In this document: positions 3,090 to 60,422 of the stretch, piece by piece | Position numbering within the stretch: position 1 is the stretch's first letter | How the letters are laid out: each line of letters begins with the position of its first letter | Origin: Syntrophales bacterium | Lineage (GTDB): Bacteria > Desulfobacterota > Syntrophia > Syntrophales > UBA8958 | Reading direction: 5' to 3' | Assembly: GCA_026417625.1 (NCBI GenBank) | Contig: JAOACW010000005.1 | Coordinates: 64,456 to 128,455 of the forward strand | Length of the DNA stretch: 64,000 nucleotides | Notes under the pieces: model-generated | What the model was told of the DNA's origin: nothing | The model's input: only the letters and a program-made list of their open reading frames with translations | Database searches by the model: none | Made by a program: the position numbers and the translations under genes

Positions 3090-3164
3090 AGGCACGTAGC
3101 TCAGGGGGAGAGCGCCATCCTGACGCGGTGGATGTCCAGGGTTCAAATCCCTGCGTGCCTACCA
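3090..3164 (+). tRNA. tRNA-Val (anticodon GAC)
   Basis: Cloverleaf folded by hand. Acceptor AGGCACG/CGTGCCT, D-arm GCTC..GAGC, anticodon stem CCATC/GGTGG with loop CTGACGC, T-arm CAGGG-TTCAAAT-CCCTG, encoded CCA. Confidence 0.9.
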
Positions 3165-17547: not shown

Positions 17548-17901
17548 GGGGGCGAAAAGGGTTCGACGGGGATAGTTGAAACTGCAGCTGCGTATCGAGG
17601 TTCCTACCGGCCTCGTTAAAAAGGTAGGGTAAAATAGTCGCAAACGACTACGAATACGCTTTAGCCGCATAAGACGGCTAACGTTCTCCTGATCTCGCCT
17701 GCCGGATCAGTGAGGGCGTCAGAAAGGTAGGATAGTCTTGGTTCTAGTCCTGGGGAACCAAGGCGAAATAAACCGGGATAGCCAAGGATATTCCCTGCCT
17801 CCTAGGGAATACTGAGGCGAAATGAAAAATAGGAGGCTACGTACGTAGAACCTGCAGTGGAAGATTTCCGGACGGGGGTTCGATTCCCCCCGCCTCCACC
17901 A
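17548..17901 (+). ncRNA. ssrA: tmRNA (SsrA), one-piece; tag peptide ANDYEYALAA
   Basis: 5' GGGGGCG pairs with 3' CGCCTCC-A-CCA. T-arm GGGGGTTCGATTCCCCC. Resume codon context ...AAAATAGTC GCA AAC GAC TAC GAA TAC GCT TTA GCC GCA TAA (17640-17672), very close to the E. coli tag region. Confidence 0.9.
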
Positions 17902-42286: not shown

Positions 42287-43150
42287 ATGGAATCGGCTGA
42301 TAATGCCAATGCTATACTTCTCCTCTCTTGTCCGGATCGGAAGGGTTTAGTGTACAATATTTCCAATTTCATATACCGGCATAACGGTAATATTGTGCAC
42401 GCAGCACAACACACCACGGCAAGCAAGATATTTTTCATGCGTGTTGAGTGGGAGTTGAAAGATTTTGCAATACCTCGGGAGGAGATAGGACTAGTCTTTC
42501 GCCACGTGGCGAAACAATTAGATATGAGATGGGAACTTCATTTTACAGATGAGGTACAAAAATTAGCAATTTTCGTATCTCGTCATCCTCATTGTCTGTA
42601 CGACCTTTTGCTCAGACATAGAATGGGAGAGTTTCGTGCTGAGATTCCTGTGGTGATTAGTAATCATCCAGATCTTGAGTCTGTGGTAACTCAATTCGGT
42701 TTGAAGTTTTTCTATTTCCCCAAAACTCCGGATAACAAAAGGGAACAGGAAGAAAAAGAGCTAAAGATTCTGCAGGACATGGGAATAGACTTGATCGTTT
42801 TGGCCCGTTACATGCAAATCTTTACAAAGGATTTTGTTTCTCGGTACCCAAATAAAATGATAAATATACACCACTCGTTCCTACCGGCTTTTGTGGGCCC
42901 CAAACCATACCACCAGGCGTATGAAAGGGGGGTTAAAGTTATCGGGGCTACGAGCCACTATGTGACGGAAAATCTAGACGACGGACCTATTATTGCTCAG
43001 GACGTGATAAGGATTAGTCATCGTGATTCTGTGGAAGATATAATGCTGAAAGGAAAGGATCTTGAAAGGATTGTTTTGGCCCGGGCCGTTCGTCTGCACC
43101 TGGAACATCGCATCCTTACCTATGGATCAAAGACAATTGTCTTTGAATGA
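42287..43150 (+). CDS. purU: Formyltetrahydrofolate deformylase
   Basis: N-terminal ACT domain (ILLLSCPDRKGLVYNISNFI) and formyltransferase core (NIHHSFLP, ATSHYV...LDDGPII). Confidence 0.9.
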   Translation: MESADNANAILLLSCPDRKGLVYNISNFIYRHNGNIVHAAQHTTASKIFFMRVEWELKDFAIPREEIGLVFRHVAKQLDMRWELHFTDEVQKLAIFVSRHPHCLYDLLLRHRMGEFRAEIPVVISNHPDLESVVTQFGLKFFYFPKTPDNKREQEEKELKILQDMGIDLIVLARYMQIFTKDFVSRYPNKMINIHHSFLPAFVGPKPYHQAYERGVKVIGATSHYVTENLDDGPIIAQDVIRISHRDSVEDIMLKGKDLERIVLARAVRLHLEHRILTYGSKTIVFE

Positions 43151-43980
43151 GTTCTTCTAAAATGGAACAAAGTTCATACATTCATCTCTGCCAGCCTGGA
43201 AAAGACAAATCCTGTGCAGCTTGTTGTGGTCTTTACAACTATGTGGATAGTTCTCGGGAAGCTTTAACAGAGAGGCTAAAAAATAGAACGAAAATTTTTT
43301 CGTCGATAAGGGAGCCTGATCTTGAAGAATTGGCAAAGTTTTCAGCATGCTTACGGTCTTTTGAGGATCAGAGAAGACGGTACGAGGTTATTTACTGTTG
43401 CGAGTTTCTTGGGTTTCTGGACGAAGAGATGAAGAGGGTTGGGTGTCTCATTCATCCCTTCCAGAACAAAGGTAAGGATTTGAGAGAAATTTCTTTCTAT
43501 GGCCGTGAGCTATGTGCAGGTCACTTCTGCCCGAGTTTCCATTATCTGTCCCCATTGGAAAAAAAGGTGGTCGTTGATGTTCTCGACGATTGGTATGTGT
43601 ACGGTCTTGTCGTTACGGATATAGATTTTGTGAAGGAATTTTTCCGACATCTGAGTGATGCTATCGGAGAAACCCCGAAGGAAGAGGCTTTTCAAGACGA
43701 CGAGCTGAAGAAGTTAGTTAAAGATTATTTGGAGCTTAAGATAAATTGGCCATTTAGAAGTGAAGATGCGAAGCGATTCGGGCAGTTTTACTTCGATGGT
43801 TCACAGTATATGATCAAATTTATAGATTACAAGTCATTGGGATTGGAAAGATCCCGTTTTGACAGGATGTTTCTCTCTCTGTCTTCTGATTTTAGAAGTG
43901 CGGAAGATGTCCTTAGGGCTGAAGAAATTATTTCCCATTATATTATCTCTTTTGCTACAACTTACGTAAAGAAGTTTTGA
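43147..43980 (+). CDS. Hypothetical cysteine-cluster protein (C-x8-C-x2-CC N-terminal motif)
   Basis: The ORF overlaps the purU stop by 4 nt. Cys motifs are LCQPGKDKSCAACCG, YCCEF, GCLIHP and CAGHFCPS. Only a loose resemblance to CxxCxxCC (YkgJ-type) proteins. Confidence 0.55.
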   Translation: MSSSKMEQSSYIHLCQPGKDKSCAACCGLYNYVDSSREALTERLKNRTKIFSSIREPDLEELAKFSACLRSFEDQRRRYEVIYCCEFLGFLDEEMKRVGCLIHPFQNKGKDLREISFYGRELCAGHFCPSFHYLSPLEKKVVVDVLDDWYVYGLVVTDIDFVKEFFRHLSDAIGETPKEEAFQDDELKKLVKDYLELKINWPFRSEDAKRFGQFYFDGSQYMIKFIDYKSLGLERSRFDRMFLSLSSDFRSAEDVLRAEEIISHYIISFATTYVKKF

Positions 43981-44008
43981 GTTTGATTGACGATGTTTAG
44001 AATTTCTG

Positions 44009-44037
44009 TTGACATAAAATGCATGCTGATTTTTAAA
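44009..44037 (+). promoter_or_regulatory. Possible sigma70-type promoter for hpt
   Basis: TTGACA (44009-44014), 17-nt spacer, TTTAAA (44032-44037). The -10 element is weak. Confidence 0.3.
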
Positions 44038-44073
44038 AAGGCATAAGAGTTTTAAGAAAAGGAGGGTTTGATA

Positions 44074-44601
44074 ATGGAGAAGACGCAGAAGGAAATCCTC
44101 TACTCACGGGAGGATATAAAAAAACGTGTTGAGGAACTTGCCAGACAGATTAATGCGGATTATAAGGGGAAAGATCCGGTCATCATAGGTATTCTGAAAG
44201 GTGCCTTTGTATTCATGGCGGATCTGATTCGTCATCTGGAAATTCCCTGTACAGTGGACTTTATTAGGCTTGCGAGCTATGGCTCAGGATCCATCTCTTC
44301 GGGAGAAATAAAGGTTACAAAGGACATAGAGACGGATATAAAGGGTAAAGATGTGCTTGTAGTAGAGGATATCATTGATACGGGTTTAACTCTCCGGTAT
44401 TTGGTTGATCTTCTCAGAGAAAGGGGACCATCTTCGCTTAAAGTATGTGCCCTTATAGACAAACGTCTCCGTAGACGAGTGGAATTCGAGGCGGATTACG
44501 TCGGTTTCACCATGGATGATGGTTTTGTTGTCGGTTATGGTCTCGACTATAATGAACAAGACCGTAGCCTGCCAGATGTCTATATAGTAAAAAATGTGTA
44601 G
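44074..44601 (+). CDS. hpt: Hypoxanthine phosphoribosyltransferase
   Basis: PRPP-binding motif VLVVEDIIDTGLT. ATG at 44074 follows GGAGGG. Confidence 0.9.
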   Translation: MEKTQKEILYSREDIKKRVEELARQINADYKGKDPVIIGILKGAFVFMADLIRHLEIPCTVDFIRLASYGSGSISSGEIKVTKDIETDIKGKDVLVVEDIIDTGLTLRYLVDLLRERGPSSLKVCALIDKRLRRRVEFEADYVGFTMDDGFVVGYGLDYNEQDRSLPDVYIVKNV

Positions 44602-44626
44602 TTACAACCCTAAGTAGGATTTAGTG

Positions 44627-45412
44627 ATGGTAATCGAGTGTGCAAAATGTAAGACGAAGTACCGATTTGATGAAACTCAAGTGGAAGAAAACATTGGTTT
44701 CTGGGTTAGGTGTACGCGCTGTGGTGAAGTTTTTTTCCAATTGAGGGATGGTATACCGAACTTTCAAAGAGAAACGATACATCACGAGGAAGAGGGTGGT
44801 CTCCAGGGTGATCTGTCTGATATTGAGAATGAGGCCGAAAGGAAGAGAAAAAAGCGCAAAATGTTTTGGCTGGGAATATCAGCTTCTATACTGATAACTT
44901 TTTTGGCAATGGGAACTGCGCTGTTTATGTTTTCCACTGAAGTGGAAAATTTAATGCGAGGGATATTACAACCAACTGCTTTTTTGTTTGAACCTCGCAC
45001 GTCACCGAAGGAGTCTTCTGGTCCATCGCAGATAAGGATTGTAGATTTACAACAGAGGTTTGTGTCCAATGTTTGGATGGGCAACGTGCGGGTTATTGAG
45101 GGTATGGCGAGGAATGAGGGTACAACTTCCCTTACGAAGATAAAGGTAAAAGCTGAACTATTTGATGCTGGAGGGGTACGAGTTATGGAGGGTTTCGCCT
45201 ACTGCGGAAACCTACTCACAGACAAGGAGCTTGGAACTTTAACAGCTGAAGAGATAAACAGAAAGCTATCCAATCCTGCTGGTTCTGATTTTCCCAGTAC
45301 GAGTGTCGCTCCTCGCTCTGCGATACCTTTTATGATAGTCATATTTGGTGAACCACAAGGAGTAACAACTGCTTATGTTTCGGCTATTGAAGCGGAACGG
45401 TTACTGCAGTAA
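44627..45412 (+). CDS. MJ0042-type zinc-ribbon / DUF3426 membrane protein
   Basis: N-terminal CxxC...CxxC ribbon (IECAKCKTKYRFD...VRCTRCGEVF), one TM segment, and a C-terminal domain with DUF3426-like strand pattern. Confidence 0.65.
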   Translation: MVIECAKCKTKYRFDETQVEENIGFWVRCTRCGEVFFQLRDGIPNFQRETIHHEEEGGLQGDLSDIENEAERKRKKRKMFWLGISASILITFLAMGTALFMFSTEVENLMRGILQPTAFLFEPRTSPKESSGPSQIRIVDLQQRFVSNVWMGNVRVIEGMARNEGTTSLTKIKVKAELFDAGGVRVMEGFAYCGNLLTDKELGTLTAEEINRKLSNPAGSDFPSTSVAPRSAIPFMIVIFGEPQGVTTAYVSAIEAERLLQ

Positions 45413-45420
45413 TAGACGAA

Positions 45421-45957
45421 CTACCGTTTTCGGCTGTCGTAAATTTTAATGATCCTGTCGGTGATATCAATTGCTTCGTTAGCTGTTACGATAGCACTTC
45501 TCTCAAATATTGCTGTAAACTTTTCATTACGTGCAAAGTCCCTTACGATGGTGACAATCTCTTCGAGGAGTTTTCTACTCAACTCCATGTCCCGTCTCCG
45601 TAATTCTTCGTCTACATCTTGTTTTAAATAGGTCAATTCCCGTTGGGCCTGCTTGAGTGCTTTTATTTTTTCGTTGCGCTGTGCTTCCTCTTTTCGGGGG
45701 TCCAACTTGTTTATTTCTTCTTCGAGATTTTTAATAGCTTTTTCTTTGTTCATCACCTGCGTTCTCTTTTCTTCCAGTTCCTTTTCGAAAGTCGCTCTCG
45801 CAGCTTTGGCAGCTTTTGAATCCCTGAGAATTCGTTGTATATCCACAATGCCTATCTTTACGGGACCGATGCTGCTTTGGTCTTTCTGAGCAGCTTTAGC
45901 CATGGATAACGGTAGGAGCAGAAAAATGAAAAACAGAGCTAAACTTAACTTCCTCAT
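45421..45957 (-). CDS. OmpH/Skp-family periplasmic chaperone
   Basis: Signal peptide (MRKLSLALFFIFLLLPLSMAKA), KIGIVDIQRIL start of the mature region, and a long K/E-rich coiled-coil arm. ATG at 45957 follows GAGGTG. Confidence 0.75.
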   Translation of the reverse strand: MRKLSLALFFIFLLLPLSMAKAAQKDQSSIGPVKIGIVDIQRILRDSKAAKAARATFEKELEEKRTQVMNKEKAIKNLEEEINKLDPRKEEAQRNEKIKALKQAQRELTYLKQDVDEELRRRDMELSRKLLEEIVTIVRDFARNEKFTAIFERSAIVTANEAIDITDRIIKIYDSRKR

Positions 45958-46140
45958 TGTACACCTCACGTAGTGTCAAAATTTCTCCAAAATGATAGAA
46001 CTTGACATGGTGGAAAGTTATAGTGTAACGTAGTTCTCAAAATCCATTTGTTTTTTTTCAATGTTCAAATTTAAAAAGGTTAAATCCAACATTAATTCCT
46101 CTATCATCATTGCTTTCCAAAGTAAAGAAAGGAATGCCCC

Positions 46141-47769
46141 ATGAAGAAAATCCCCTTTTGTGTTGTGGTATTTACCATCCTGGTATCTTTAACTTTTGTT
46201 TTTGTTCCAGCTATGCGCTCTTATGGTCAGGAACAAAGTCCTAGTCTCCGGGAGGGAATCGAACAGTACAGGGAAGGCAGCTACGAAGAAGCGATTGAAA
46301 TACTTGAGAAAGTCCGTTCGAAAGACCCCACGTCTTCGACGGCAGCGTTCTTTCTGGGACTAGCTTATAAACAAGCTCAGGATTATGCGAAGGCTCTAGT
46401 CAATTTTCAGGATGCGGCACAGCTGAAGCCGCGCATAAAAGAGGCTTTTGTAGAGATTATAGACTCCCTGTACCAGCTGAACAGGATAGATGAAGCGAAG
46501 AGATGGATACAGATTGCCGAACAAGAAGGTGTGTACCCAGCTCGCGTAGCTTTTCTCAAGGGGCTTGTATTCGCCAAAGAAAACAAAAATCAAGAGGCGA
46601 TCGAAGCTTTTGAAAAGGCAAAACAGCAAGATCCCTCTCTCAGTCAATCCTGCGATTTTCAAATCGCCATGCTCTACATGAGGGAGAGGAAGCTAGATAA
46701 GGCTAAGGAGAGATTGCAGACTGTAATAACCCGTGATCCCCTTTCTGATCTTGCAACCTTTGCGAGGCAATACAAGGATATTGTGGAAAAAAGGATGTAT
46801 CTCGAGAGACCGCTTCGCTTAACTCTTGGTGTTTTTGGGGGTTACGATACCAATATAGTTACCAAGCCTACAAACGATGTTGTGGCCGGAGACATCACTG
46901 ATGAAAGGGGACGGGTACTTCAGAGTTATCTCCGCATCGACTACATTCCTGTGCTCAAGGATCCTTGGATTTTAAATGCCTCGTATTCAGCAACATTAAA
47001 TGTCAATCAGAAACACACCCATTCCCATGATTTCTTCGCTCAGACGTTCTCCCTTTCTCCGGGGATAAATTTCGGTCGTTTTGCTACTAACCTGAATGTT
47101 AGTTTCACGAACGTTCTTCTGCGAACGGATCCCGATACTTCGCCTCCACCGGATTCGAACCCCGGTTACAAACGATATTTGGATGATTTTTCAATAGGCC
47201 CGATTTTCCGTGTTCTTATCAGAGAGAACCACATTTTGGAAATACACGGGGGTTACGATAAAAAGGAATTCTACAATCAGAAAAAAACGTCATCTCGCAC
47301 GGACCGCTTCTGGGAAAACAACAGGGATGCCGTGGGTCCAAAAGCTTATTTAAGTTGGATTTGGCTCTTTACTGAGAATGCTTTTCTTAACGTTCGTTAC
47401 GATTACTCGAAAGATCACGCTGATGGTATGTACTGGGATAACGAGGGACATAGGGTAACGGCAAATCTCATTTTTCCCCTTTTATCCAGGGAGAAGCTGG
47501 CACGTTTTGGTCCTTTGAGCATGCAGGTAACAGCGAGTTACCTCTATCAGAGGTATACATATGAGCAACCCTTTCAGGATAACGATGGTTCCTCTAAGTC
47601 GGCAAACAGAAAAGACAAAAGTTTCACAGGAAGTATAGGAATCAATTGGGAATTTTACCGTAACACCAGTTTTATTCTTCAGTACACTGGAACAAATTGT
47701 AATTCGAATATTCCGGCTAACGATTATCATCGTAATTTGTACACTGCGGGAGTGGAATTAAGATTTTAA
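46141..47769 (+). CDS. Outer-membrane protein: N-terminal TPR domain plus C-terminal beta-barrel
   Basis: Signal peptide. TPR-like repeats from about aa 35-200 (YREGSYEEAIEILEKV, LGLAYKQAQDYAKALVNFQDA, ...). After that come alternating amphipathic strands (GVFGGYDTNI...). Terminal beta-signal NLYTAGVELRF ends in Phe. Confidence 0.7.
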   Translation: MKKIPFCVVVFTILVSLTFVFVPAMRSYGQEQSPSLREGIEQYREGSYEEAIEILEKVRSKDPTSSTAAFFLGLAYKQAQDYAKALVNFQDAAQLKPRIKEAFVEIIDSLYQLNRIDEAKRWIQIAEQEGVYPARVAFLKGLVFAKENKNQEAIEAFEKAKQQDPSLSQSCDFQIAMLYMRERKLDKAKERLQTVITRDPLSDLATFARQYKDIVEKRMYLERPLRLTLGVFGGYDTNIVTKPTNDVVAGDITDERGRVLQSYLRIDYIPVLKDPWILNASYSATLNVNQKHTHSHDFFAQTFSLSPGINFGRFATNLNVSFTNVLLRTDPDTSPPPDSNPGYKRYLDDFSIGPIFRVLIRENHILEIHGGYDKKEFYNQKKTSSRTDRFWENNRDAVGPKAYLSWIWLFTENAFLNVRYDYSKDHADGMYWDNEGHRVTANLIFPLLSREKLARFGPLSMQVTASYLYQRYTYEQPFQDNDGSSKSANRKDKSFTGSIGINWEFYRNTSFILQYTGTNCNSNIPANDYHRNLYTAGVELRF

Positions 47770-47799
47770 AATTATCAAGAAATTAGGAGTTAAAACCCC

Positions 47800-50700
47800 A
47801 TGATCAACAAGAAGAGATTTAAAATTGTTGGCCTTATGGTCATATGTTTACTGTTTACCGCAGTTTCATCTTTTGCCCAGACTGTAGGAAGAATCACCTA
47901 TATCGAGGGCAATGTGGATATTACAAAGCCCGGCAAAGCAGCGGTTCCTGTAAGGCTGGGGGATGGGGTTGATATAGGAGATATCATTCGAACTAAGTTA
48001 AAATCAAAGTGCGAGGTTACATTCACTGACGGAAATGTTCTTCGTCTTGCCGAAAATACCCGTATTCGCGTTACAGAATACACGATGGGGAAAGATGGAA
48101 CCTTGAATCTTTTCCGGGGAAAAATCCACAGTATTGTGAGTGCCACAGGTGTTGTTAAGGGTTCTCGATATGAGGTACATACACCTACGGCAATAGCTGG
48201 TGTGAGGGGTACGAACTTTTTCACCTATTTCCAGGCAGGTGTCACAGGTGTCATTTTTAAGGAAGGTCAGGGTTATGGATACAGCTTAAACAGACCTGAA
48301 GAGGTGGTAACGATCAAGGCCGGTCAGACTATGATTGTTGTTGATCCGAGTCAGCCGCCTGTATTGAGGGCTGCGACACCTCAAGAAATAGAGAAACATA
48401 CTCAAGATACAGCCCCTGCTGAAAAGAAAAAAGAGGAAGCTAAGAAAGAGGAAAAAAAAGAGGAAGCACCCTCTGTGAAGAGGGAACAAGCGAAGGAAGA
48501 ACCTAAAAAAGAGGAAGCGCCGCCGACCACTGCTGAACTAACGCCAGCACCTGCACCGGAAACGCCGGCGACGGAAACTAAGACAGTCACCGCGGTTCAA
48601 AAAACAACGCCTCCTCCTACTCAGCCCCTCGTGCCGGTAAAACAGGATACAACCCCCCCTGAAATTACTATCGTGTCAACCCAAGCAGAGCCAACCACTG
48701 GTTACAGGTTGTCGAATGTGGATGTTTCCCTCTCCAGTAACGAGGATGCGACGTACTATTACCGTATAGATGGGAGTGATTGGACTGAAACACCTAAAAA
48801 CTTCACTCTTTCCAATCTGTCAGAGGGTGATCACACTCTGGAAGTCAGAGGTAAGGACGCAGCGGGTAACACGTCTTCTCCGAAGACACGCTCTTTTCAC
48901 CTGAGCCGTTACGATTTGAGTGGTATGTTTGTTATGAGTGGAAGTAATGTGCAGAACGGTGATGCTACGGGAAAGGTAGCAGGGGTTTCGAACGATAACT
49001 GGGGTGGTTGGGGAATAAAAATGGGTGGTTATGGTAACTATCCTACAGATTCTTGGAAAATACAAGCGGGTGGGCAGAGTTATGAGACAACCGCTACGAA
49101 TGAAGATGGTTACTGGATAGAAACAGTGGATGGGACTACAGATTACAATACCAAAAAACTTAAAGGCACCTCTGACTTTACTTATCTTTCCAAGGATAGA
49201 CGGGGTTATGGAACAGGAAAGACAGAGGGTTTCTACGAAGAAGCTGGATCCGTTTACCGTTACCAGCTAAATGATTCAGGTAAAGGCAAATATACGGAGA
49301 TCCCTCTGGTCTTCAGCGGTCTTGTTGACGCAAAGTATCATTACTTCGATGATGAGTCTTCAGAGGTGACCCCGGATGGAGGAAGTAAAAGCATTGTGGG
49401 TTCCACTGCGTCACCCTTTGAAAGCGCCACGGAAACTAATGTTTCCGGCAATGATGTCGATCTGTATGTAATGGGTAAATCAGATTCTTACCATCCGGCT
49501 ACGTGGTGGGGTCGTGTATCGGGGAGTTATGTCGGGAGCACGAAGCTACCTGATGGTTTTGTAGCGAGCAGAACATACGAGGACTTTATGGAGGGGATGC
49601 TGCTAAGTCTCTATGTAGACGGTTCAGGGAAGGCGGGCATACTTGAAGGTAAATTCGAAGGTTCTAACTACACAGGCATTTCTATGTTCAAGTCCACAAC
49701 AGGATCTATAAAGGCCACGTTGAAGGATACAGGATATACGAGCCAGACGACGGAAAAGAACTATATTGAAGGAACCTACTATGGTGATTTTTTACCAAAC
49801 GCTTATTATATACAAGATGTGGCGCAGGGTTATCTAGGTGCTTACACTGTACGATTGATAAAGGATTCTAAACCAGCTGCGTGGGGAATCTTCAACATGG
49901 AGCTTGGAGGTAAGTTCACGAAAGATCCTACGAATAATTGGCGTTTAGAAGCGGGTGGGACCAGTTGGTTAGGAAACGAGGATACAGAATACTGGGTTTC
50001 TAGGATCAACGGCAGTCAGTGGTCGTATGACGAGACGAAGGGTTACCGGATAGTGGGTGAATTTTCCGGCGGTCGTTATATAACCGAAAAGTCGCTCGGG
50101 GTTATAAAGGGGAAACTCCTTGGGAGTTACGAGATTGGCGATGGTTTTGGAAGCTGGGTGGCTGTTGGAATGGGAACCTTCGAGCGAACCCACGATTTAA
50201 CAAAAGCACCCAACTTCAGCAGTGTTCTGGAGGAAGGAAATCTTGCCGCTGTGGTTCCTGGAGATTTTTATGTGGGGATGTACAAGAAGCACTACTCACC
50301 GGAGGGTATGCCATACGAACACCACACCCTGGAATACGAATATGGGTACTTTAAAGATGGACAGGGTAACACTAAGAAAGGTTTCCGTTCAGAATATAAA
50401 GAAACACTGAAAAATGGTGAAGAAGTCGAGGAAGAATGGCATTACTATCACAATCAAACATATGTAAAATGGAATTATGACGCCGAACGTTTTGTGGAAA
50501 AGGGAGATGCTCCGAGTAATCTGGACTTGTCCACAGAACCACCAACCTCTAATAATTTCCCTGGTGGTGAAGAGGCTGGATACTATAGTGTTCACAAACA
50601 ATCATTCCCCACCAATAGTGTTCAACAGGTGGCGAAACTCGACGGTGTTATGGGTGGATTAGGGAACCTCTGGACAGCGAGTAAAGATCAGAAAAAAGGC

Positions 50701-53304
50701 AACGATGTGAACATTGCCATAATTGGGGAATACAGCTCTGATATAGGTTTACCTGTTATTTACGGTTCTATTATTCAAAGCAAAAGATATTTGGAGGGAG
50801 GTATCAGCTACACCACGCCCGATGGTGGGGCGTATTACGGATGGCTTGGAGGAGTCGTGGATGCTCATTCAGCGGACAATATGGAAGGCAAGTTGTATGG
50901 GCTATACATTGCCCCTAACGGTTCCGCAGGTTATCTAAAAGGATCCGTTTCTGGGAGAATATACACAGGTATACGCATGTGGGAAGTGGATGGAACCATA
51001 CATCCCGAGTATGTAAAGGAAACCACCGGTATCGAAGCAAAGGATTTCCTCAATCCATCCAAGGATAACCTGGTAAAGGGGGCAATTGAGGCCCAGATGT
51101 CCTTTGGGTCTTTCGAGAACACTGGTTGGATAGGTAAAATGGCAATGGGCTGGGGTGAGTCTCGTTCCATCAAAGGACAGGATTGGGGAATCTTCTACGT
51201 CATTCACGGAGTGGATAACTTCTATGAGAATCCGCAGAATAAGAAGAACTTCACCGTTCAGACAGCTGGAGTAGGTGAATTTGGAGCTTTTCAAGATAAA
51301 TCGGGCAGCTTCGTTCCTGATTACGGTTATTGGGCTGTGCAGGTTAAGGGAATCGTGGATTTAGAAGCGGGGAAGATTTTCGGTGAACTTTCTGAAGGCG
51401 AGACAGCTGGAAAATTCCTGACTTATACAAAGGCGGGTATGATTAGCGACTGGCGCATGTTGGGAACTATAACTCCTGATGAAGGTAACAGTACAAAAGG
51501 TCGTTGGCAGGCTATCTCTGTGGGAACGTGGGAAGCGGATCAAAGTTTATCTTTCAGTAGTGGAATCGGCGGAAAAACCCTGCCGGAAGTTAGAGAGAGG
51601 AAGAGAGGTTATGTAAACTACAATGCTGGATATTCAAGCTTTAGCTACGCCTATGACATCAACCGGGAGAAACCGGAAGGATACGTGTCTAATCAAAAAT
51701 ATGTGGGTCCGGGTGCGCACGAGAGGACTTGGAAGGATTATCACTATAGTGGAGTTAATGATACTCCAATCATTGAAGTATGGACTAAAGCAGCAGACAA
51801 ACCGGAGGGGCAAGCAACGTATTCGTATGGTGGAACATATACGAAAGATAATATTGACGACAAGATTTATCAAGATATGTACAGTTTTACTGGTAAAACT
51901 GCGCCAGATGAGGAGTACCAGGAACACTATTTTCCAGACAGGGGCGGTGATTTTAGAGGCATCATGGGAGGTTATGGAACATCTCTCTGGAGTTCAATGA
52001 AGGATAACCCAACGAACCTTGTCTTTCTAGGACTTTACGATAACGAGGAACACAGAAAACGCATAATTTTCAATGGTGAAATCGTAAGTTTTGATCCAAA
52101 AGTGACCTTTGATGCTTATTCCAATTCAACTTCGCCCGTTGGTGGCGCTTATTACGGCTTCTTCGGCGGTCTCATTGACGAAAATGTTCGAGATGTAAAC
52201 GGAGCCGTTTATACCCTCTATGTCGATGATGGTGCCAAGGGATCCACGCAGAGAGCAGGTATCTTGAAGGGCTCATTTTCTGGGAACGTATATCCGCGAA
52301 CTGTGGAGGCGTTCGAGCAGGGAGGTATATGGGACGCTGAGGGGAGCATATATAAAATTGTAATGAAAGAAGGTACCAATCTCGAACCCTCGCAATTCAA
52401 TCCTGGAGACCTAATAACCAAGGATAAAGAATACTACAGTGAACACTTTATTTTTAATCACGAGGAAAGGTATTCCACGTTGTCCGATTTTTCAACGAGC
52501 GCTTATGCTTCTATTGTTATGAGTGCTTTCATAAAAGGGGATTACTGCTGGGGTATTGTCCAAAACATAGAGGCCGGCACGTACACAGGTACACCTTCAG
52601 GCAAAGTTGAATTGGCCAGGAGTGTGGACTGGAAAAACAACCAGGGTGGCCTTAAGATAACTACATCTACTTATTCTGATACTGATTGGAATGTAAATAA
52701 AGAGCGGATTTCCGGAACTTTTACAGGGTCAGTAACCCAATGGGAAGAAGCGAAGGTTTATATGATGGGTGGAGATATTCACGGAATGTTCAATCCTTCC
52801 ATTAAAACATACGAAATGGCCATAACAGGCGGAGTGGTTACGGTGGATAAATTTATGGAACTGGTAGGTTCTGAGACTGGCAGAGAAAACTTAAAATCAC
52901 TTAATATTCCCACTGTTTTTGTGGGGAAAGATACCTTGAGTGGCAATTACGGTGACCTAACTGTAAATATGAATAACGTTTCCTTCTATGCATATTCCAC
53001 TGGACAGTCACCCCGCATTTGGGCGACCAACGATGTTAATGGGACATTCACTCAAGCTCCTCAAACAGGAACCATTGTTCCGTTACAAGGTTCTGTCCTT
53101 GAGGCCCAGTTTAATATACAAAAGTGGGATGGGAGTAAGTGGGGCGCAAAAGTTATGGGACAAACACAATCAGGCAAGAACTTAGGTGGTTACGAGATTA
53201 AGTTCACTGGTGGTGCGGCAGGCACAATTAATCAGCAGGCTGGTACCTTTTCTGGAACGGCGGCGGGTATATCTGTCCCGAAGAGTGGCAGTAGCGGACA
53301 GTAG
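47800..53304 (+). CDS. Giant exported protein (1,834 aa), function unknown: signal peptide, FecR domain, K/E/P/T-rich linker, Ig-like (Y_Y_Y-type) domain, then about 1,450 aa of G/Y/W-rich super-repeats
   Basis: SPase I-type signal (..VSSFAQT). FecR signature (GDIIRTKLKSKCEVTFTDGNVLRLAENTRIRV ... AIAGVRGTNF). Linker at aa about 205-285. DATYYYRIDGSDW...GDHTLEVRGKDAAGN Ig-like module. Recurring WGI and GGAYYG...LY...G.LKGS.SG modules. A single uninterrupted ORF with a terminator 45 nt downstream. Confidence 0.85.
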   Translation: MINKKRFKIVGLMVICLLFTAVSSFAQTVGRITYIEGNVDITKPGKAAVPVRLGDGVDIGDIIRTKLKSKCEVTFTDGNVLRLAENTRIRVTEYTMGKDGTLNLFRGKIHSIVSATGVVKGSRYEVHTPTAIAGVRGTNFFTYFQAGVTGVIFKEGQGYGYSLNRPEEVVTIKAGQTMIVVDPSQPPVLRAATPQEIEKHTQDTAPAEKKKEEAKKEEKKEEAPSVKREQAKEEPKKEEAPPTTAELTPAPAPETPATETKTVTAVQKTTPPPTQPLVPVKQDTTPPEITIVSTQAEPTTGYRLSNVDVSLSSNEDATYYYRIDGSDWTETPKNFTLSNLSEGDHTLEVRGKDAAGNTSSPKTRSFHLSRYDLSGMFVMSGSNVQNGDATGKVAGVSNDNWGGWGIKMGGYGNYPTDSWKIQAGGQSYETTATNEDGYWIETVDGTTDYNTKKLKGTSDFTYLSKDRRGYGTGKTEGFYEEAGSVYRYQLNDSGKGKYTEIPLVFSGLVDAKYHYFDDESSEVTPDGGSKSIVGSTASPFESATETNVSGNDVDLYVMGKSDSYHPATWWGRVSGSYVGSTKLPDGFVASRTYEDFMEGMLLSLYVDGSGKAGILEGKFEGSNYTGISMFKSTTGSIKATLKDTGYTSQTTEKNYIEGTYYGDFLPNAYYIQDVAQGYLGAYTVRLIKDSKPAAWGIFNMELGGKFTKDPTNNWRLEAGGTSWLGNEDTEYWVSRINGSQWSYDETKGYRIVGEFSGGRYITEKSLGVIKGKLLGSYEIGDGFGSWVAVGMGTFERTHDLTKAPNFSSVLEEGNLAAVVPGDFYVGMYKKHYSPEGMPYEHHTLEYEYGYFKDGQGNTKKGFRSEYKETLKNGEEVEEEWHYYHNQTYVKWNYDAERFVEKGDAPSNLDLSTEPPTSNNFPGGEEAGYYSVHKQSFPTNSVQQVAKLDGVMGGLGNLWTASKDQKKGNDVNIAIIGEYSSDIGLPVIYGSIIQSKRYLEGGISYTTPDGGAYYGWLGGVVDAHSADNMEGKLYGLYIAPNGSAGYLKGSVSGRIYTGIRMWEVDGTIHPEYVKETTGIEAKDFLNPSKDNLVKGAIEAQMSFGSFENTGWIGKMAMGWGESRSIKGQDWGIFYVIHGVDNFYENPQNKKNFTVQTAGVGEFGAFQDKSGSFVPDYGYWAVQVKGIVDLEAGKIFGELSEGETAGKFLTYTKAGMISDWRMLGTITPDEGNSTKGRWQAISVGTWEADQSLSFSSGIGGKTLPEVRERKRGYVNYNAGYSSFSYAYDINREKPEGYVSNQKYVGPGAHERTWKDYHYSGVNDTPIIEVWTKAADKPEGQATYSYGGTYTKDNIDDKIYQDMYSFTGKTAPDEEYQEHYFPDRGGDFRGIMGGYGTSLWSSMKDNPTNLVFLGLYDNEEHRKRIIFNGEIVSFDPKVTFDAYSNSTSPVGGAYYGFFGGLIDENVRDVNGAVYTLYVDDGAKGSTQRAGILKGSFSGNVYPRTVEAFEQGGIWDAEGSIYKIVMKEGTNLEPSQFNPGDLITKDKEYYSEHFIFNHEERYSTLSDFSTSAYASIVMSAFIKGDYCWGIVQNIEAGTYTGTPSGKVELARSVDWKNNQGGLKITTSTYSDTDWNVNKERISGTFTGSVTQWEEAKVYMMGGDIHGMFNPSIKTYEMAITGGVVTVDKFMELVGSETGRENLKSLNIPTVFVGKDTLSGNYGDLTVNMNNVSFYAYSTGQSPRIWATNDVNGTFTQAPQTGTIVPLQGSVLEAQFNIQKWDGSKWGAKVMGQTQSGKNLGGYEIKFTGGAAGTINQQAGTFSGTAAGISVPKSGSSGQ

Positions 53305-53338
53305 AAGTAAAATTCAAGAATCTTTACTTAGTTAGATC

Positions 53339-54745
53339 TCAATTTTTCAGCTTGCCCACGCTGTGGGCAAGCTTTTTTAAATCGTAAAAAACACTTTCCT
53401 CAATGGTTCCAGTCCAACAGGGCAGAAGGGAGTTGTTGTGGAAGAGGGGTTCTCTTTCAAGTGGATAAGGGCTTGAACGTTTTGATTGTTCCCAGAGTGC
53501 TGTTCCTGGAACGGGAGAAAACTCCGCAAGTATCGGTTTTGCCCCAAGGTTGTGCACAAACCTGATGGATTGTAAAACTTCTTCTGGTTGCTGGTCAGGT
53601 AAACCGCAGAGAATGTAGACGCCGATTTGTGTCCCCTCGTAACCCGCCTCTCTCAGGTATGAAACCGCCATCTCCAGCTCTTGGTTTGTTATCTTTTGGC
53701 CCCACTTTTTTTGGCTTTCTTCGTTTGCTGTTTCGAACCCTAAACGGAGTGTAACAAATCCTGCTTTGAAAAGCAGTTTTGCCAGCTTTGGGGTAATATA
53801 CCTGGCATGCAACCCGTTGGGGCAGTGGAACCGTAAGTCGAAATTTTGATGCACGATTTCTTCCAGCATGGGGATAACTGAGATTTCAGCGTCAAGCAAA
53901 AAGGCATCGTCGTATATTGAAAAGTCTTTTACTCCTTTTGTTTTGGACCAGTAAGCGATCTCTTCTAAGACTCTGTTTGGGTTCCGTCTTAAAAACTCGG
54001 GAGAAAGAACACTGGAAGCACAGTATGAACAACTGAATGGACAACCTCGGGAAGTAAGGATAGGCACCTGATCCAGTTCCGGAAGTAGGTCAAAGGCGGG
54101 ATAGGGTAGTGCATCCAATTCGGTTTTATGGGGATCAAACGTAAGAGGTAGCTTTAGAACCTCGCGTATAATGAAAGAAACAGACTTTTCCCCTGGCCCT
54201 GTAAGGACAATATCTGCCCCAGAGAGAGTTGCGTGCTCTTTACAGAGGGTAGCGTAAATTCCTCCCAGGACAACCGGCGTTCCCGGAAACACTTTTTTGA
54301 TTAGCGATATGATCTCCCACACTCCCAAATACCAGTATGTCATAGTGGTGCCCGTGATGACCACGTCGGGTTGCTCTATGCTGGATAGGTATTTTTCGAT
54401 TAAAATCCTAGGGACACCGTATCTATGAAACTTTTTGTTAACCCCCACGAGGGATTCCGGTTTTGAGACTACCTCTTTGATGAATTTACCGTGTCCACCT
54501 AGTTTGCGGCGAGGCAGTGAATGGAGTTCATCACGGAAAAGATGAGGATCGAGGCAGTCAACGAAGGTTACTTTTGCGCCATTTTCTCTCAGGTATGATG
54601 CGATGTATAAAAGTCCGAGGGGTTTTAGCCAGTAGTCGTACGCTGCAAAATCGTATATCCAGGGATTTATGACGAGAACGTTTTTCATCGTGGATATTAA
54701 TATCATCCGATTTTTTTGGCGGCAAGTGCACTTTTCCGGATCCAT
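53339..54745 (-). CDS. B12-binding-domain radical SAM protein
   Basis: N-terminal B12-like region (VLVINPWIYDFAAYDYWLKPLGLLYIASYL) and radical SAM triad SRGCPFSCSYC. The start is uncertain (ATG at 54745, 54706 or 54688; none has a clear SD). Confidence 0.8.
   Translation of the reverse strand: MDPEKCTCRQKNRMILISTMKNVLVINPWIYDFAAYDYWLKPLGLLYIASYLRENGAKVTFVDCLDPHLFRDELHSLPRRKLGGHGKFIKEVVSKPESLVGVNKKFHRYGVPRILIEKYLSSIEQPDVVITGTTMTYWYLGVWEIISLIKKVFPGTPVVLGGIYATLCKEHATLSGADIVLTGPGEKSVSFIIREVLKLPLTFDPHKTELDALPYPAFDLLPELDQVPILTSRGCPFSCSYCASSVLSPEFLRRNPNRVLEEIAYWSKTKGVKDFSIYDDAFLLDAEISVIPMLEEIVHQNFDLRFHCPNGLHARYITPKLAKLLFKAGFVTLRLGFETANEESQKKWGQKITNQELEMAVSYLREAGYEGTQIGVYILCGLPDQQPEEVLQSIRFVHNLGAKPILAEFSPVPGTALWEQSKRSSPYPLEREPLFHNNSLLPCWTGTIEESVFYDLKKLAHSVGKLKN
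53349..53378 (+). terminator. Rho-independent terminator of the giant gene (embedded in the 3' end of the convergent radical SAM CDS)
   Basis: Perfect 11-bp stem AGCTTGCCCAC/GTGGGCAAGCT with a 3-nt loop, followed by T5. Confidence 0.7.

Positions 54746-60345: not shown

Positions 60346-60422
<77 letters not shown>

Follow-up and report, generated by a model that had tools for sequence, protein, structure and literature searches.

What does a 1,834-aa exported protein with a FecR-type head do directly downstream of a gene for an outer-membrane protein (OMP) that joins tetratricopeptide repeats (TPRs) to a β-barrel? The question is raised by a locus in a 64,000-nucleotide stretch of a Syntrophales bacterium genome (contig JAOACW010000005.1; "the window" below means this whole stretch), where a skp-like chaperone gene adjoins the pair. 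A first-pass annotation, made from the sequence alone, had read the locus as a dedicated protein translocon of the Slam (type XI) kind rather than a polysaccharide porin. Family matches, the predicted strand count of the barrel and gene linkage support that reading. On balance, we think it probable that the OMP and giant genes form a two-gene cassette, often accompanied by skp, and that the cassette encodes a divergent type XI (Slam-like) secretion system with its dedicated cargo. The giant protein, which we call the cargo for brevity, would be displayed at the cell surface, most likely as an adhesin or a protein of the biofilm matrix.

A recurring pair of genes

The open reading frames (ORFs) of the locus were found at the positions and on the strands first assigned to them, including the OMP with TPRs and barrel that ends in ...YTAGVELRF, and the giant gene 30 nt downstream of it with a terminator of its own:

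45421-45969, minus strand: skp/ompH-like chaperone gene (182 aa, signal peptide; PF03938), divergent from the OMP gene
45970-46140, no strand: intergenic region (171 bp, read from the sequence) from which skp and the OMP gene diverge, with presumed promoters
46141-47769, plus strand: OMP gene (ORF of 542 aa, C-terminus ...YTAGVELRF)
47770-47799, plus strand: spacer of 30 nt between the OMP and cargo genes, with a ribosome-binding site (GGAG at 47786-47789)
47800-53304, plus strand: giant cargo gene (ORF of 1,834 aa)
53349-53373, plus strand: hairpin and T-run resembling an intrinsic terminator, 45 nt past the cargo stop codon

The spacer between the OMP and giant genes is exactly 30 nt long, and its GGAG lies 11 nt before the ATG (positions 47786-47799, from the ribosome-binding site to the cargo start, read GGAGTTAAAACCCC). 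The two genes are probably co-transcribed. The terminator has an 11-bp stem with seven GC pairs, followed by TTTTTT. The hairpin overlaps the last codons of a convergent ORF for a B12-binding radical-SAM protein (53339-54745, minus strand); probably it acts bidirectionally, or else the true stop of the radical-SAM gene lies upstream of the called one. Promoters in the skp/OMP spacer are only presumed, because no consensus sigma-70-like site was listed within its 171 bp and the count of such sites across the whole scanned region (12) is not above that of shuffled sequences.

To place the locus among its relatives, we used long contigs with OMP homologs (L001-L007) and 39 loci from a barrel-pattern scan of GTDB species representatives. 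These were searched with purpose-built hidden Markov models (HMMs) for the barrel, the cargo head (residues 1-215), the C-terminal domain of the cargo, and Skp. In 34 of the 39 GTDB loci, and in each of the seven looked-up contigs, a gene with the cargo head directly follows the OMP gene on the same strand. The five exceptions comprise four contigs with less than 1.4 kb of downstream sequence and one locus (L045) with a degraded barrel gene. The pairing of OMP and giant genes is thus not due to chance, and the linkage first noticed at this single locus holds among its relatives. The same arrangement was recovered when the search started from cargo homologs, in L048 (Syntrophobacterales) and in L047 (Nitrospirota), which has two tandem cargo genes. 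The head-OMP pairing is the most persistent feature of the cassette, because it is kept even with a Geobacter OMP that is only 27% identical and is still followed by a 332-aa FecR-domain protein. All complete downstream genes end with the C-terminal domain; in L046 the pairing is present though the C-terminal domain was not detected.

Head and C-terminal domain are split over two overlapping frames in cargo genes of L001, L003, L008, L028, L031 and L047 (for example, 666 + 342 aa in L001, 379 + 644 aa in L003, and 149 + 2,019 aa in L047). Such splits may stem from misassembly of repetitive genes, from true frameshifts or from phase variation. The 149-aa ORFs found after or between the cargo genes of L047 and L048 are unrelated to each other, and the one in L047 is the displaced N-terminus of the second cargo.

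The window skp gene encodes a small exported protein (182 aa, signal peptide) that matches PF03938 OmpH well above the cut-off (E 7e-25; 88.3 bits vs 32.4), which identifies it as a Skp/OmpH family member. It lies directly upstream of the OMP gene in divergent orientation, 171 bp away, and outside the bamA-skp-lpxD context, as had been noted; neither bamA nor lpxD adjoins it. Among the ~23 loci with visible flanks, six have skp within ~2 kb of the cassette, in two phyla: the window, L005, L008, L011, L032 and L047, the last from Nitrospirota. In the window skp is upstream and divergent, and in the other five it is downstream and on the same strand. Since skp is found in two phyla and in differing positions, this suggests a functional link rather than inherited gene order. 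Skp is a holdase that binds unfolded TbpB and is required for Slam1-dependent translocation and display of TbpB (PMC9090332). Both this published role and the linkage in six loci favour the earlier suggestion that the chaperone may serve the module.

Several cassettes contain further genes. In Desulfobacterales-type loci (L025, L029, L031, L032, L039 and L040), genes for LuxR-family regulators (GerE domain) lie between the OMP and cargo genes, together with a PilZ-like gene of ~115-140 aa where there is enough sequence (most of these loci); a further regulator site listed with them is L045:848-1513. The LuxR and PilZ genes were confirmed with Pfam for L031 and L039 only, those of other loci being judged by translation, and the one regulator tested (L031) gave a weak, below-cut-off match to a VpsT-like receiver. 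In L008 a gene for a Crp/cNMP-binding regulator occupies the same place (L008:3973-4662). The inserted regulator genes suggest control of the cargo by cyclic di-GMP (c-di-GMP) or other biofilm-type signals. Downstream of skp in L047 (L047:14932-22060) are a metallo-β-lactamase-fold gene with a weak match to the anti-Pycsar protein Apyc1 and two large CHASE2-guanylate/adenylate cyclase genes, possibly another link to nucleotide signalling. An IS200/Y1-type transposase gene (L002:11740-12282) separates the OMP gene from a 2,495-aa cargo gene in Desulfobacteraceae Eth-SRB1.

The persistence of the head-OMP pairing would also be expected if the OMP were a docking or anchoring partner and the giant protein a periplasmic scaffold or sensor that contacts the TPR domain through its FecR head. 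We consider this unlikely, though it has points in its favour: FecR-type domains are periplasmic in their best-known setting, that of FecR and PupR, the pairing is the most conserved element even where the C-terminal domain escapes detection, and export is predicted rather than demonstrated. However, the acidic, repeat-rich and highly variable bodies of the giant proteins (600 to >5,000 residues) are typical of surface proteins, and such sizes are hard to accommodate in the periplasm. The homology of the OMP to a family of proven translocons, described below, and the presence of biofilm-type regulator genes within the cassette also argue against a purely periplasmic role.

Family placement of the outer-membrane protein

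The secretion reading depends on what kind of barrel the OMP has. The protein is divided as follows:

46141-46227, plus strand: signal peptide, residues ~1-29 (from the translation; no lipobox at a plausible position; a low-confidence single helix over residues 1-27 in the model)
46240-46806, plus strand: periplasmic TPR domain, residues 34-222 (twelve helices in six TPR pairs, AlphaFold)
46813-47766, plus strand: 14-stranded β-barrel, residues 225-542 (AlphaFold; β-signal ...GVELRF)

An exhaustive profile search put the OMP family at 945 clusters at 50% identity. The top 150 matches are mostly ~500 aa long with a barrel start near residue 210, the shorter ones being fragments. An ortholog from L047 (Thermodesulfovibrionales) is 37% identical to the window OMP over its full length (E 1e-113) and passes the Slam family model PF04575 (DUF560), all 288 positions of which it covers (39.6 bits vs 22; E 5.7e-10). 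Seventeen of 46 distant full-length relatives match PF04575 at E <= 1e-4 (best 1.9e-14); in the same set BBP2_2 matches 19, DUF2860 eight and TPR_Slam six. Because the L047 ortholog and these 17 relatives match PF04575, we assign the OMP, on sequence evidence, to the Slam/DUF560 family of type XI secretion systems (T11SS) as a divergent member. The Slam affinity proposed in the first-pass annotation was thus recovered through the relatives and not in the window protein itself, which misses PF04575. The TPR_Slam model gives 28.7 bits on the window OMP, below its cut-off of 35.2.

The N-terminal part matches general TPR families (TPR_2, TPR_16 and TPR_19 over residues ~36-205, E 1e-15 to 1e-17). 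An AlphaFold model built from 67 homologs has a mean predicted local distance difference test score (pLDDT) of 91.8, and DSSP assigns 14 strands between residues 225 and 541. T11SS proteins combine an N-terminal TPR region with a 14-stranded barrel, whereas PgaA barrels have 16 strands (PMC8406197), so the modelled strand count, which had been named as a check on the barrel, agrees with T11SS and not with PgaA. The best barrel matches in Foldseek were the 14-stranded OmpG, CymA and FadL, and no Slam structure was among the top matches listed. Sequence searches of the PDB returned TPR proteins only with the whole-OMP profile and nothing useful with the barrel-only profile.

A porin for polysaccharide or another polymer (of the BBP2_2/EpsL or PgaA/BcsC/PelB type) would share the combination of TPRs and barrel, and the giant protein could then be a co-located partner such as a polymer-binding matrix protein. 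BBP2_2 is the Pfam family of most close members (23 of 24 close relatives, best E 6e-10, compared with six for DUF2860 and three for PF04575, best E 5e-5), TIGR03016 and EpsL match the window OMP weakly, and BcsC and PelBC are among its top Foldseek matches, by virtue of the combined TPR-plus-barrel architecture. Genes for GT2 and PMT_2 proteins (the latter protein O-mannosyltransferase/ArnT-like, with a TPR region) also lie directly upstream of the OMP gene in L005 (7230-9833) and L006 (1556-4159), which represent one lineage; their products might glycosylate the Thr/Ser-rich cargo.

These matches are, however, local. In the window protein and the three relatives for which extents were obtained, the BBP2_2 and EpsL matches cover the last ~55-80 residues and fall below cut-off; for BBP2_2 the window protein scores 20.1 bits against 23.7, with residues 272-328 of the barrel segment aligned to model positions 322-378. 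Its barrel also matches the generic OMP_b-brl model below threshold. With no full-length, above-cut-off match to PF10082, TIGR03016 or EpsL and no exosortase or PEP-CTERM genes nearby, the OMP does not belong with the BBP2_2/PEP-CTERM-associated OMPs. The models for PgaA (TIGR03939, 16 bits vs 367) and BcsC (18 bits vs 858) match the TPRs only and lie far below their cut-offs, in line with the preference of the first-pass annotation for a protein translocon. The barrel is predicted to have 14 strands instead of 16, the cargo lacks a PEP-CTERM signal, and no synthase, glycosyltransferase, Wza/Wzc or exosortase gene was found among the eight genes flanking the cassette in the window or among the called genes of most related loci. 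Strand count and gene context, together with a BBP2_2 match confined to a short segment, led us to reject the polysaccharide-porin explanation, which we regard as quite improbable.

The eight flanking genes scanned (four per side) are purU, a gene for an unknown protein of 277 aa, hpt and a zinc-ribbon/DUF3426 gene upstream, and genes for the B12 radical-SAM protein, a metallophosphatase, an arginase-family protein and arginine decarboxylase downstream. None encodes a glycosyltransferase, a type I secretion component or an exosortase, so the earlier remark that glycosyltransferase genes are missing here holds for this neighbourhood. The larger ORFs scanned elsewhere in the window are housekeeping genes, including thrS, pheT, ptsI, plsB, yidC, uvrB and uvrC. 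A tmRNA gene (17548-17901, tag ANDYEYALAA), tRNA-Val(GAC) (3090-3164) and tRNA-Met(CAT) (60346-60422) are ordinary chromosomal features.

In Syntrophales the cassette is repeatedly found among purine and one-carbon genes (purU and hpt at 42287-45412 in the window; purD, purH and purE in relatives L001, L003, L004 and L007). It is accompanied there by the same zinc-ribbon/DUF3426 gene and by a gene of ~275 aa, which has no Pfam or NCBIfam match (window 43147-43980). Genes for T11SS OMPs are likewise reported to co-occur with one-carbon and purine pathway genes (T11SS cargo preprint, bioRxiv 2024.09.26.615229).

The giant protein and its two ends

The cargo is built from conserved ends and a variable body:

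47800-47877, plus strand: Sec (type I) signal peptide, residues 1-26 (from the translation; cleavage between ...SSFA and Q)
47878-48414, plus strand: N-terminal head of FecR type, residues 27-205 (PF04773, BLAST map, head HMM)
48415-48684, plus strand: low-complexity linker rich in Lys, Glu, Pro and Thr, residues 206-295 (sequence, composition)
48685-48903, plus strand: immunoglobulin (Ig)-like domain, residues ~296-368 (matches to Y_Y_Y PF07495, Big_13 and OmpL47-type models)
49393-50190, plus strand: body repeat module copy 1, residues 532-797 (module HMM E 9.6e-40), with a partial copy at residues 386-483
50641-51558, plus strand: body repeat module copy 2, residues 948-1253 (module HMM E 3.5e-85)
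51958-52830, plus strand: body repeat module copy 3, residues 1387-1677 (module HMM E 1.9e-27), running into the C-terminal domain
52612-53289, plus strand: conserved C-terminal β-domain, residues ~1605-1830 (homolog conservation, AlphaFold)

We found 56 cargo homologs of 1,000-3,000 aa in Syntrophales, Syntrophobacterales, Desulfobacterales and Thermodesulfovibrionales. Across the loci, cargo length ranges from 616 aa to >3,284 aa, and the called gene of L007 exceeds 5,091 aa. A BLAST map shows three zones: the conserved head, the conserved extreme C-terminal domain, and internal modules that cross-align. Head and C-terminal domain are kept, and the body varies widely in the number of modules and in length. 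The repeats of the window protein are visible only with an HMM built from homolog segments, since self-BLAST gave no internal repeats, and the module has no Pfam family match. The Ig-like stretch falls just short of the Y_Y_Y cut-off (E 7e-6; 26.3 bits vs 26.6) and below that of the NCBIfam OmpL47-type domain (E 1.4e-7; 31.8 bits vs 40), and a calcium-repeat adhesin model matches it weakly (18.9 bits vs 50). The pI is 9.2 for the basic head and 4.9 for the acidic body. The variable, acidic, repeat-rich bodies with their weak Ig-like matches, together with the LuxR-family, PilZ and (in L008) Crp-like regulator genes inside cassettes, would fit a role in adhesion or biofilm formation.

The giant protein had been described as lacking every recognisable secretion or anchoring tag. 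The absences stand: at E <= 0.01 the window cargo matches no two-partner secretion (TPS), autotransporter, PEP-CTERM or LPXTG family, it has no RTX-toxin repeat or type I secretion family, and none of the 53 family members (the window cargo and 52 homologs) has a lipobox. "Tag-less", however, does not describe a protein with a conserved C-terminal β-domain and a head that resembles a retention module. Full-length cargos have a type I signal peptide that leads directly into the APVGKxT..EGxVDxT motif of the head. A hydrophilic stretch of low complexity comes after the head in most of the 53 members (hydrophobic residues at a median of 7%, range 0-30%), and its composition varies between homologs (K/E, poly-E, poly-P or S/T/G).

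The head (query residues 1-205) is 45-60% identical in most homologs and 35-61% identical overall. Within it, residues 62-142 match FecR PF04773 with 47.2 bits against a cut-off of 24. The protein is not a FecR-type anti-sigma factor. Such factors combine a cytoplasmic anti-sigma domain, a transmembrane helix and a C-terminal domain for the signalling domain of a receptor, and their genes adjoin those of an ECF sigma factor and a TonB-dependent receptor. The cargo shares with them the PF04773 domain only, which follows directly on a cleavable signal peptide, and there is no sigma factor or TonB-dependent receptor gene near the window module. Eighteen of 19 homologs match the LapA retention-module model NF033682 over its first ~65 positions (best E 8e-7), and the window head scores 22.7 bits against the model's cut-off of 50. 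All 19 heads are also similar to the FecR domains of the Leptospira proteins LipL45 and Lsa33; the matches to both models are below the curated cut-offs. A PDB sequence search with the head returned nothing useful.

At the other end, the extreme C-terminus (~1635-1825) is 31-43% identical across homologs in the BLAST map and carries the motifs LNIP..VG, FFAYSTG..PRIWAT, KWGA.V.G, F.GGAAG and FSGTAAGV.K. AlphaFold models the C-terminal domain with high confidence (pLDDT 91.3; predicted template modelling score 0.88) as five strands, two helices and then eight strands. We regard it as an undescribed domain because it has no Pfam family, no relative among PDB sequences and no fold match: the best Foldseek E values were 0.02 in the PDB (template modelling (TM) score <= 0.22) and 0.006 among viral models, with TM <= 0.23 overall. 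A homolog search with the C-terminal profile returned short fragments only. In T11SS cargo a variable effector is followed by a pedestal of 4-6 strands and a C-terminal 8-stranded barrel (bioRxiv 2024.09.26.615229). The strand count of the C-terminal domain is compatible with that layout, though no similarity was detected.

The last two strands of the cargo (53224-53289, residues ~1809-1830) hold the strongly conserved motifs F.GGAAG and FSGTAAGV.K. In LapA-type adhesins, TAAG is also the motif that the LapG protease recognises. The likeness may be coincidental, because the cargo motif is at the extreme C-terminus, inside a predicted strand.

That the C-terminal β-domain inserts itself in the outer membrane in the manner of autotransporters or intimin, with the TPR-barrel protein as a dedicated assembly factor, is very improbable: its top Foldseek matches are membrane barrels (the β-domains of intimin, BrkA and Hbp) and its model has two helices between two strand blocks, but those matches all have E >= 0.02 and TM <= 0.22, and we rejected the idea because the strands are polar and Gly/Ala-rich with no alternating hydrophobic face (grand average of hydropathy -0.38), the chain does not close with an aromatic β-signal (in homologs, ...GTAAGV.K is followed by variable tails), and related copies of the domain lie inside some cargos.

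Mechanism and comparison with known systems

If the cassette is a Slam-like secretion system with its cargo, export could proceed as follows. Judging by their signal peptides, both proteins would reach the periplasm through Sec. Skp would hold the very large, β-rich cargo unfolded, as its gene linkage and its published role with Slam1 suggest. The 14-stranded barrel with its six periplasmic TPRs would pass the acidic body and the C-terminal β-domain outward, in keeping with the homology of the OMP and the near-obligate adjacency of the two genes. In the most speculative step, the basic FecR-type head would stay in the periplasm, docked to the TPRs, and the disordered linker would occupy the pore, so that the cargo would remain tethered in a LapA-like manner. 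In LapA itself, an N-terminal retention module keeps the adhesin in its outer-membrane pore (bioRxiv 198937).

Taken together, these steps describe a hybrid form of display: a Sec-exported giant adhesin threaded C-terminal part first through a Slam-family barrel, then held permanently on the cell by a FecR/retention-module-like plug docked on the pore's own TPRs, with a disordered linker in the channel, a Skp dedicated to the system and a C-terminal targeting domain of a kind not known before. We offer this full scheme tentatively and hold it to be rather doubtful as a whole. If true, it would be a mechanism not described so far, a functional equivalent of LapA in LapE that is based on type XI instead of type I secretion.

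Several observations weigh against the secretion reading. The window OMP has no PF04575 match, either as a whole protein (E <= 0.01) or with the barrel alone (E <= 1), and close members match BBP2_2 more often than PF04575, though only over the last ~55 residues in the window protein and the three relatives with extents. PF04575 also catches some PgaA-like barrels (PMC8406197). The C-terminal domain of the cargo shows no detectable sequence or fold similarity to the barrels of TbpB-type cargo, and hhalign of this domain against a provisional fHbp sequence gave a probability of 0.1. Every match to the retention-module model is below its 50-bit cut-off. About three quarters of the informative loci have no skp, and no OMP gene adjoins that of one cargo homolog, P0161. 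Export and surface exposure are predictions from sequence and structure, and a 14-stranded barrel that passes 1,800 to >5,000 residues while Skp serves as the holdase would be without precedent.

We searched the literature on FecR-headed giant proteins in these lineages, on BBP2_2/DUF2860 and on FecR together with retention modules, and found no description of the cassette. The T11SS literature searched covers Proteobacteria only, with small lipoproteins or hemophores as cargo, and no FecR-headed cargo, Desulfobacterota or Nitrospirota.

Four groups of known systems invite comparison. The polysaccharide porins and their relatives (PgaA, BcsC, PelB-PelC, BBP2_2/EpsL) share the TPR-and-barrel architecture, with structural matches to BcsC and PelBC and similarity to BBP2_2 in the C-terminal strands. 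The OMP differs from them in its predicted 14 rather than 16 strands, its short TPR domain of six repeats, the absence of synthase or glycosyltransferase genes nearby and its near-obligate pairing with a protein-coding partner gene. The FecR-domain surface proteins of Leptospira (LipL45, Lsa33 and Lsa19) share the FecR-type N-terminal domain, matched in all 19 homologs with E down to 6e-17. They are, however, small lipoproteins of 180-390 aa with no known partner OMP, and the match is to the domain only, far below the family cut-offs.

LapA-type adhesins (LapEBC/LapG/LapD) share a giant, repeat-containing, adhesin-like protein, a flexible segment after the head, N-terminal ~65 residues similar to the retention-module model (18 of 19 homologs, below cut-off) and, in some loci, a c-di-GMP-related PilZ gene. 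In contrast to LapA, the cargo has a Sec signal peptide, no RTX repeats, no C-terminal type I signal and no LapG-type di-alanine site after the head. There are no ABC transporter, membrane-fusion or TolC-like genes nearby, and the pore would be a Slam-like barrel.

The T11SS/Slam systems (Neisseria Slam1-TbpB, Xenorhabdus NilB-NilC and HrpB-HrpC) share most with the cassette: a single OMP that joins periplasmic TPRs at its N-terminus to a barrel of 14 strands, homology seen through orthologs and distant relatives, a cargo gene that adjoins the OMP gene, a cargo whose variable part precedes a conserved C-terminal β-domain, and a link to Skp. The differences are that the window OMP falls below the PF04575 threshold and that the skp gene is genetically linked here. 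The hosts are Desulfobacterota and Nitrospirota, whereas those described are Proteobacteria. The cargo lacks a lipid anchor, exceeds known cargo 5- to 20-fold in size, has a FecR-type head and a linker, and ends in a C-terminal domain with no detectable similarity to the TbpBBD or lipoprotein C barrels.

What is new here is a Slam-family OMP with a giant, non-lipidated cargo class, new end domains and a linked Skp. It would extend the type XI family, so far described only in Proteobacteria and mostly in host-associated ones, to free-living anaerobes among the Desulfobacterota (Syntrophales, Desulfobacterales and relatives of Geobacter) and the Nitrospirota. Known T11SS cargo proteins are small lipoproteins or hemophores with a TbpB-type barrel; those described here would be thousands of residues long and non-lipidated, with different end domains, which raises the questions of how a barrel of 14 strands copes with substrates of such length and what its TPR domain recognises. 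The conserved head, linker and C-terminal domain offer handles for reconstituted systems. As candidate cell-cell or cell-surface adhesins, the giant proteins would be relevant to the aggregation and partner contact on which syntrophic and sulfate-reducing communities depend.

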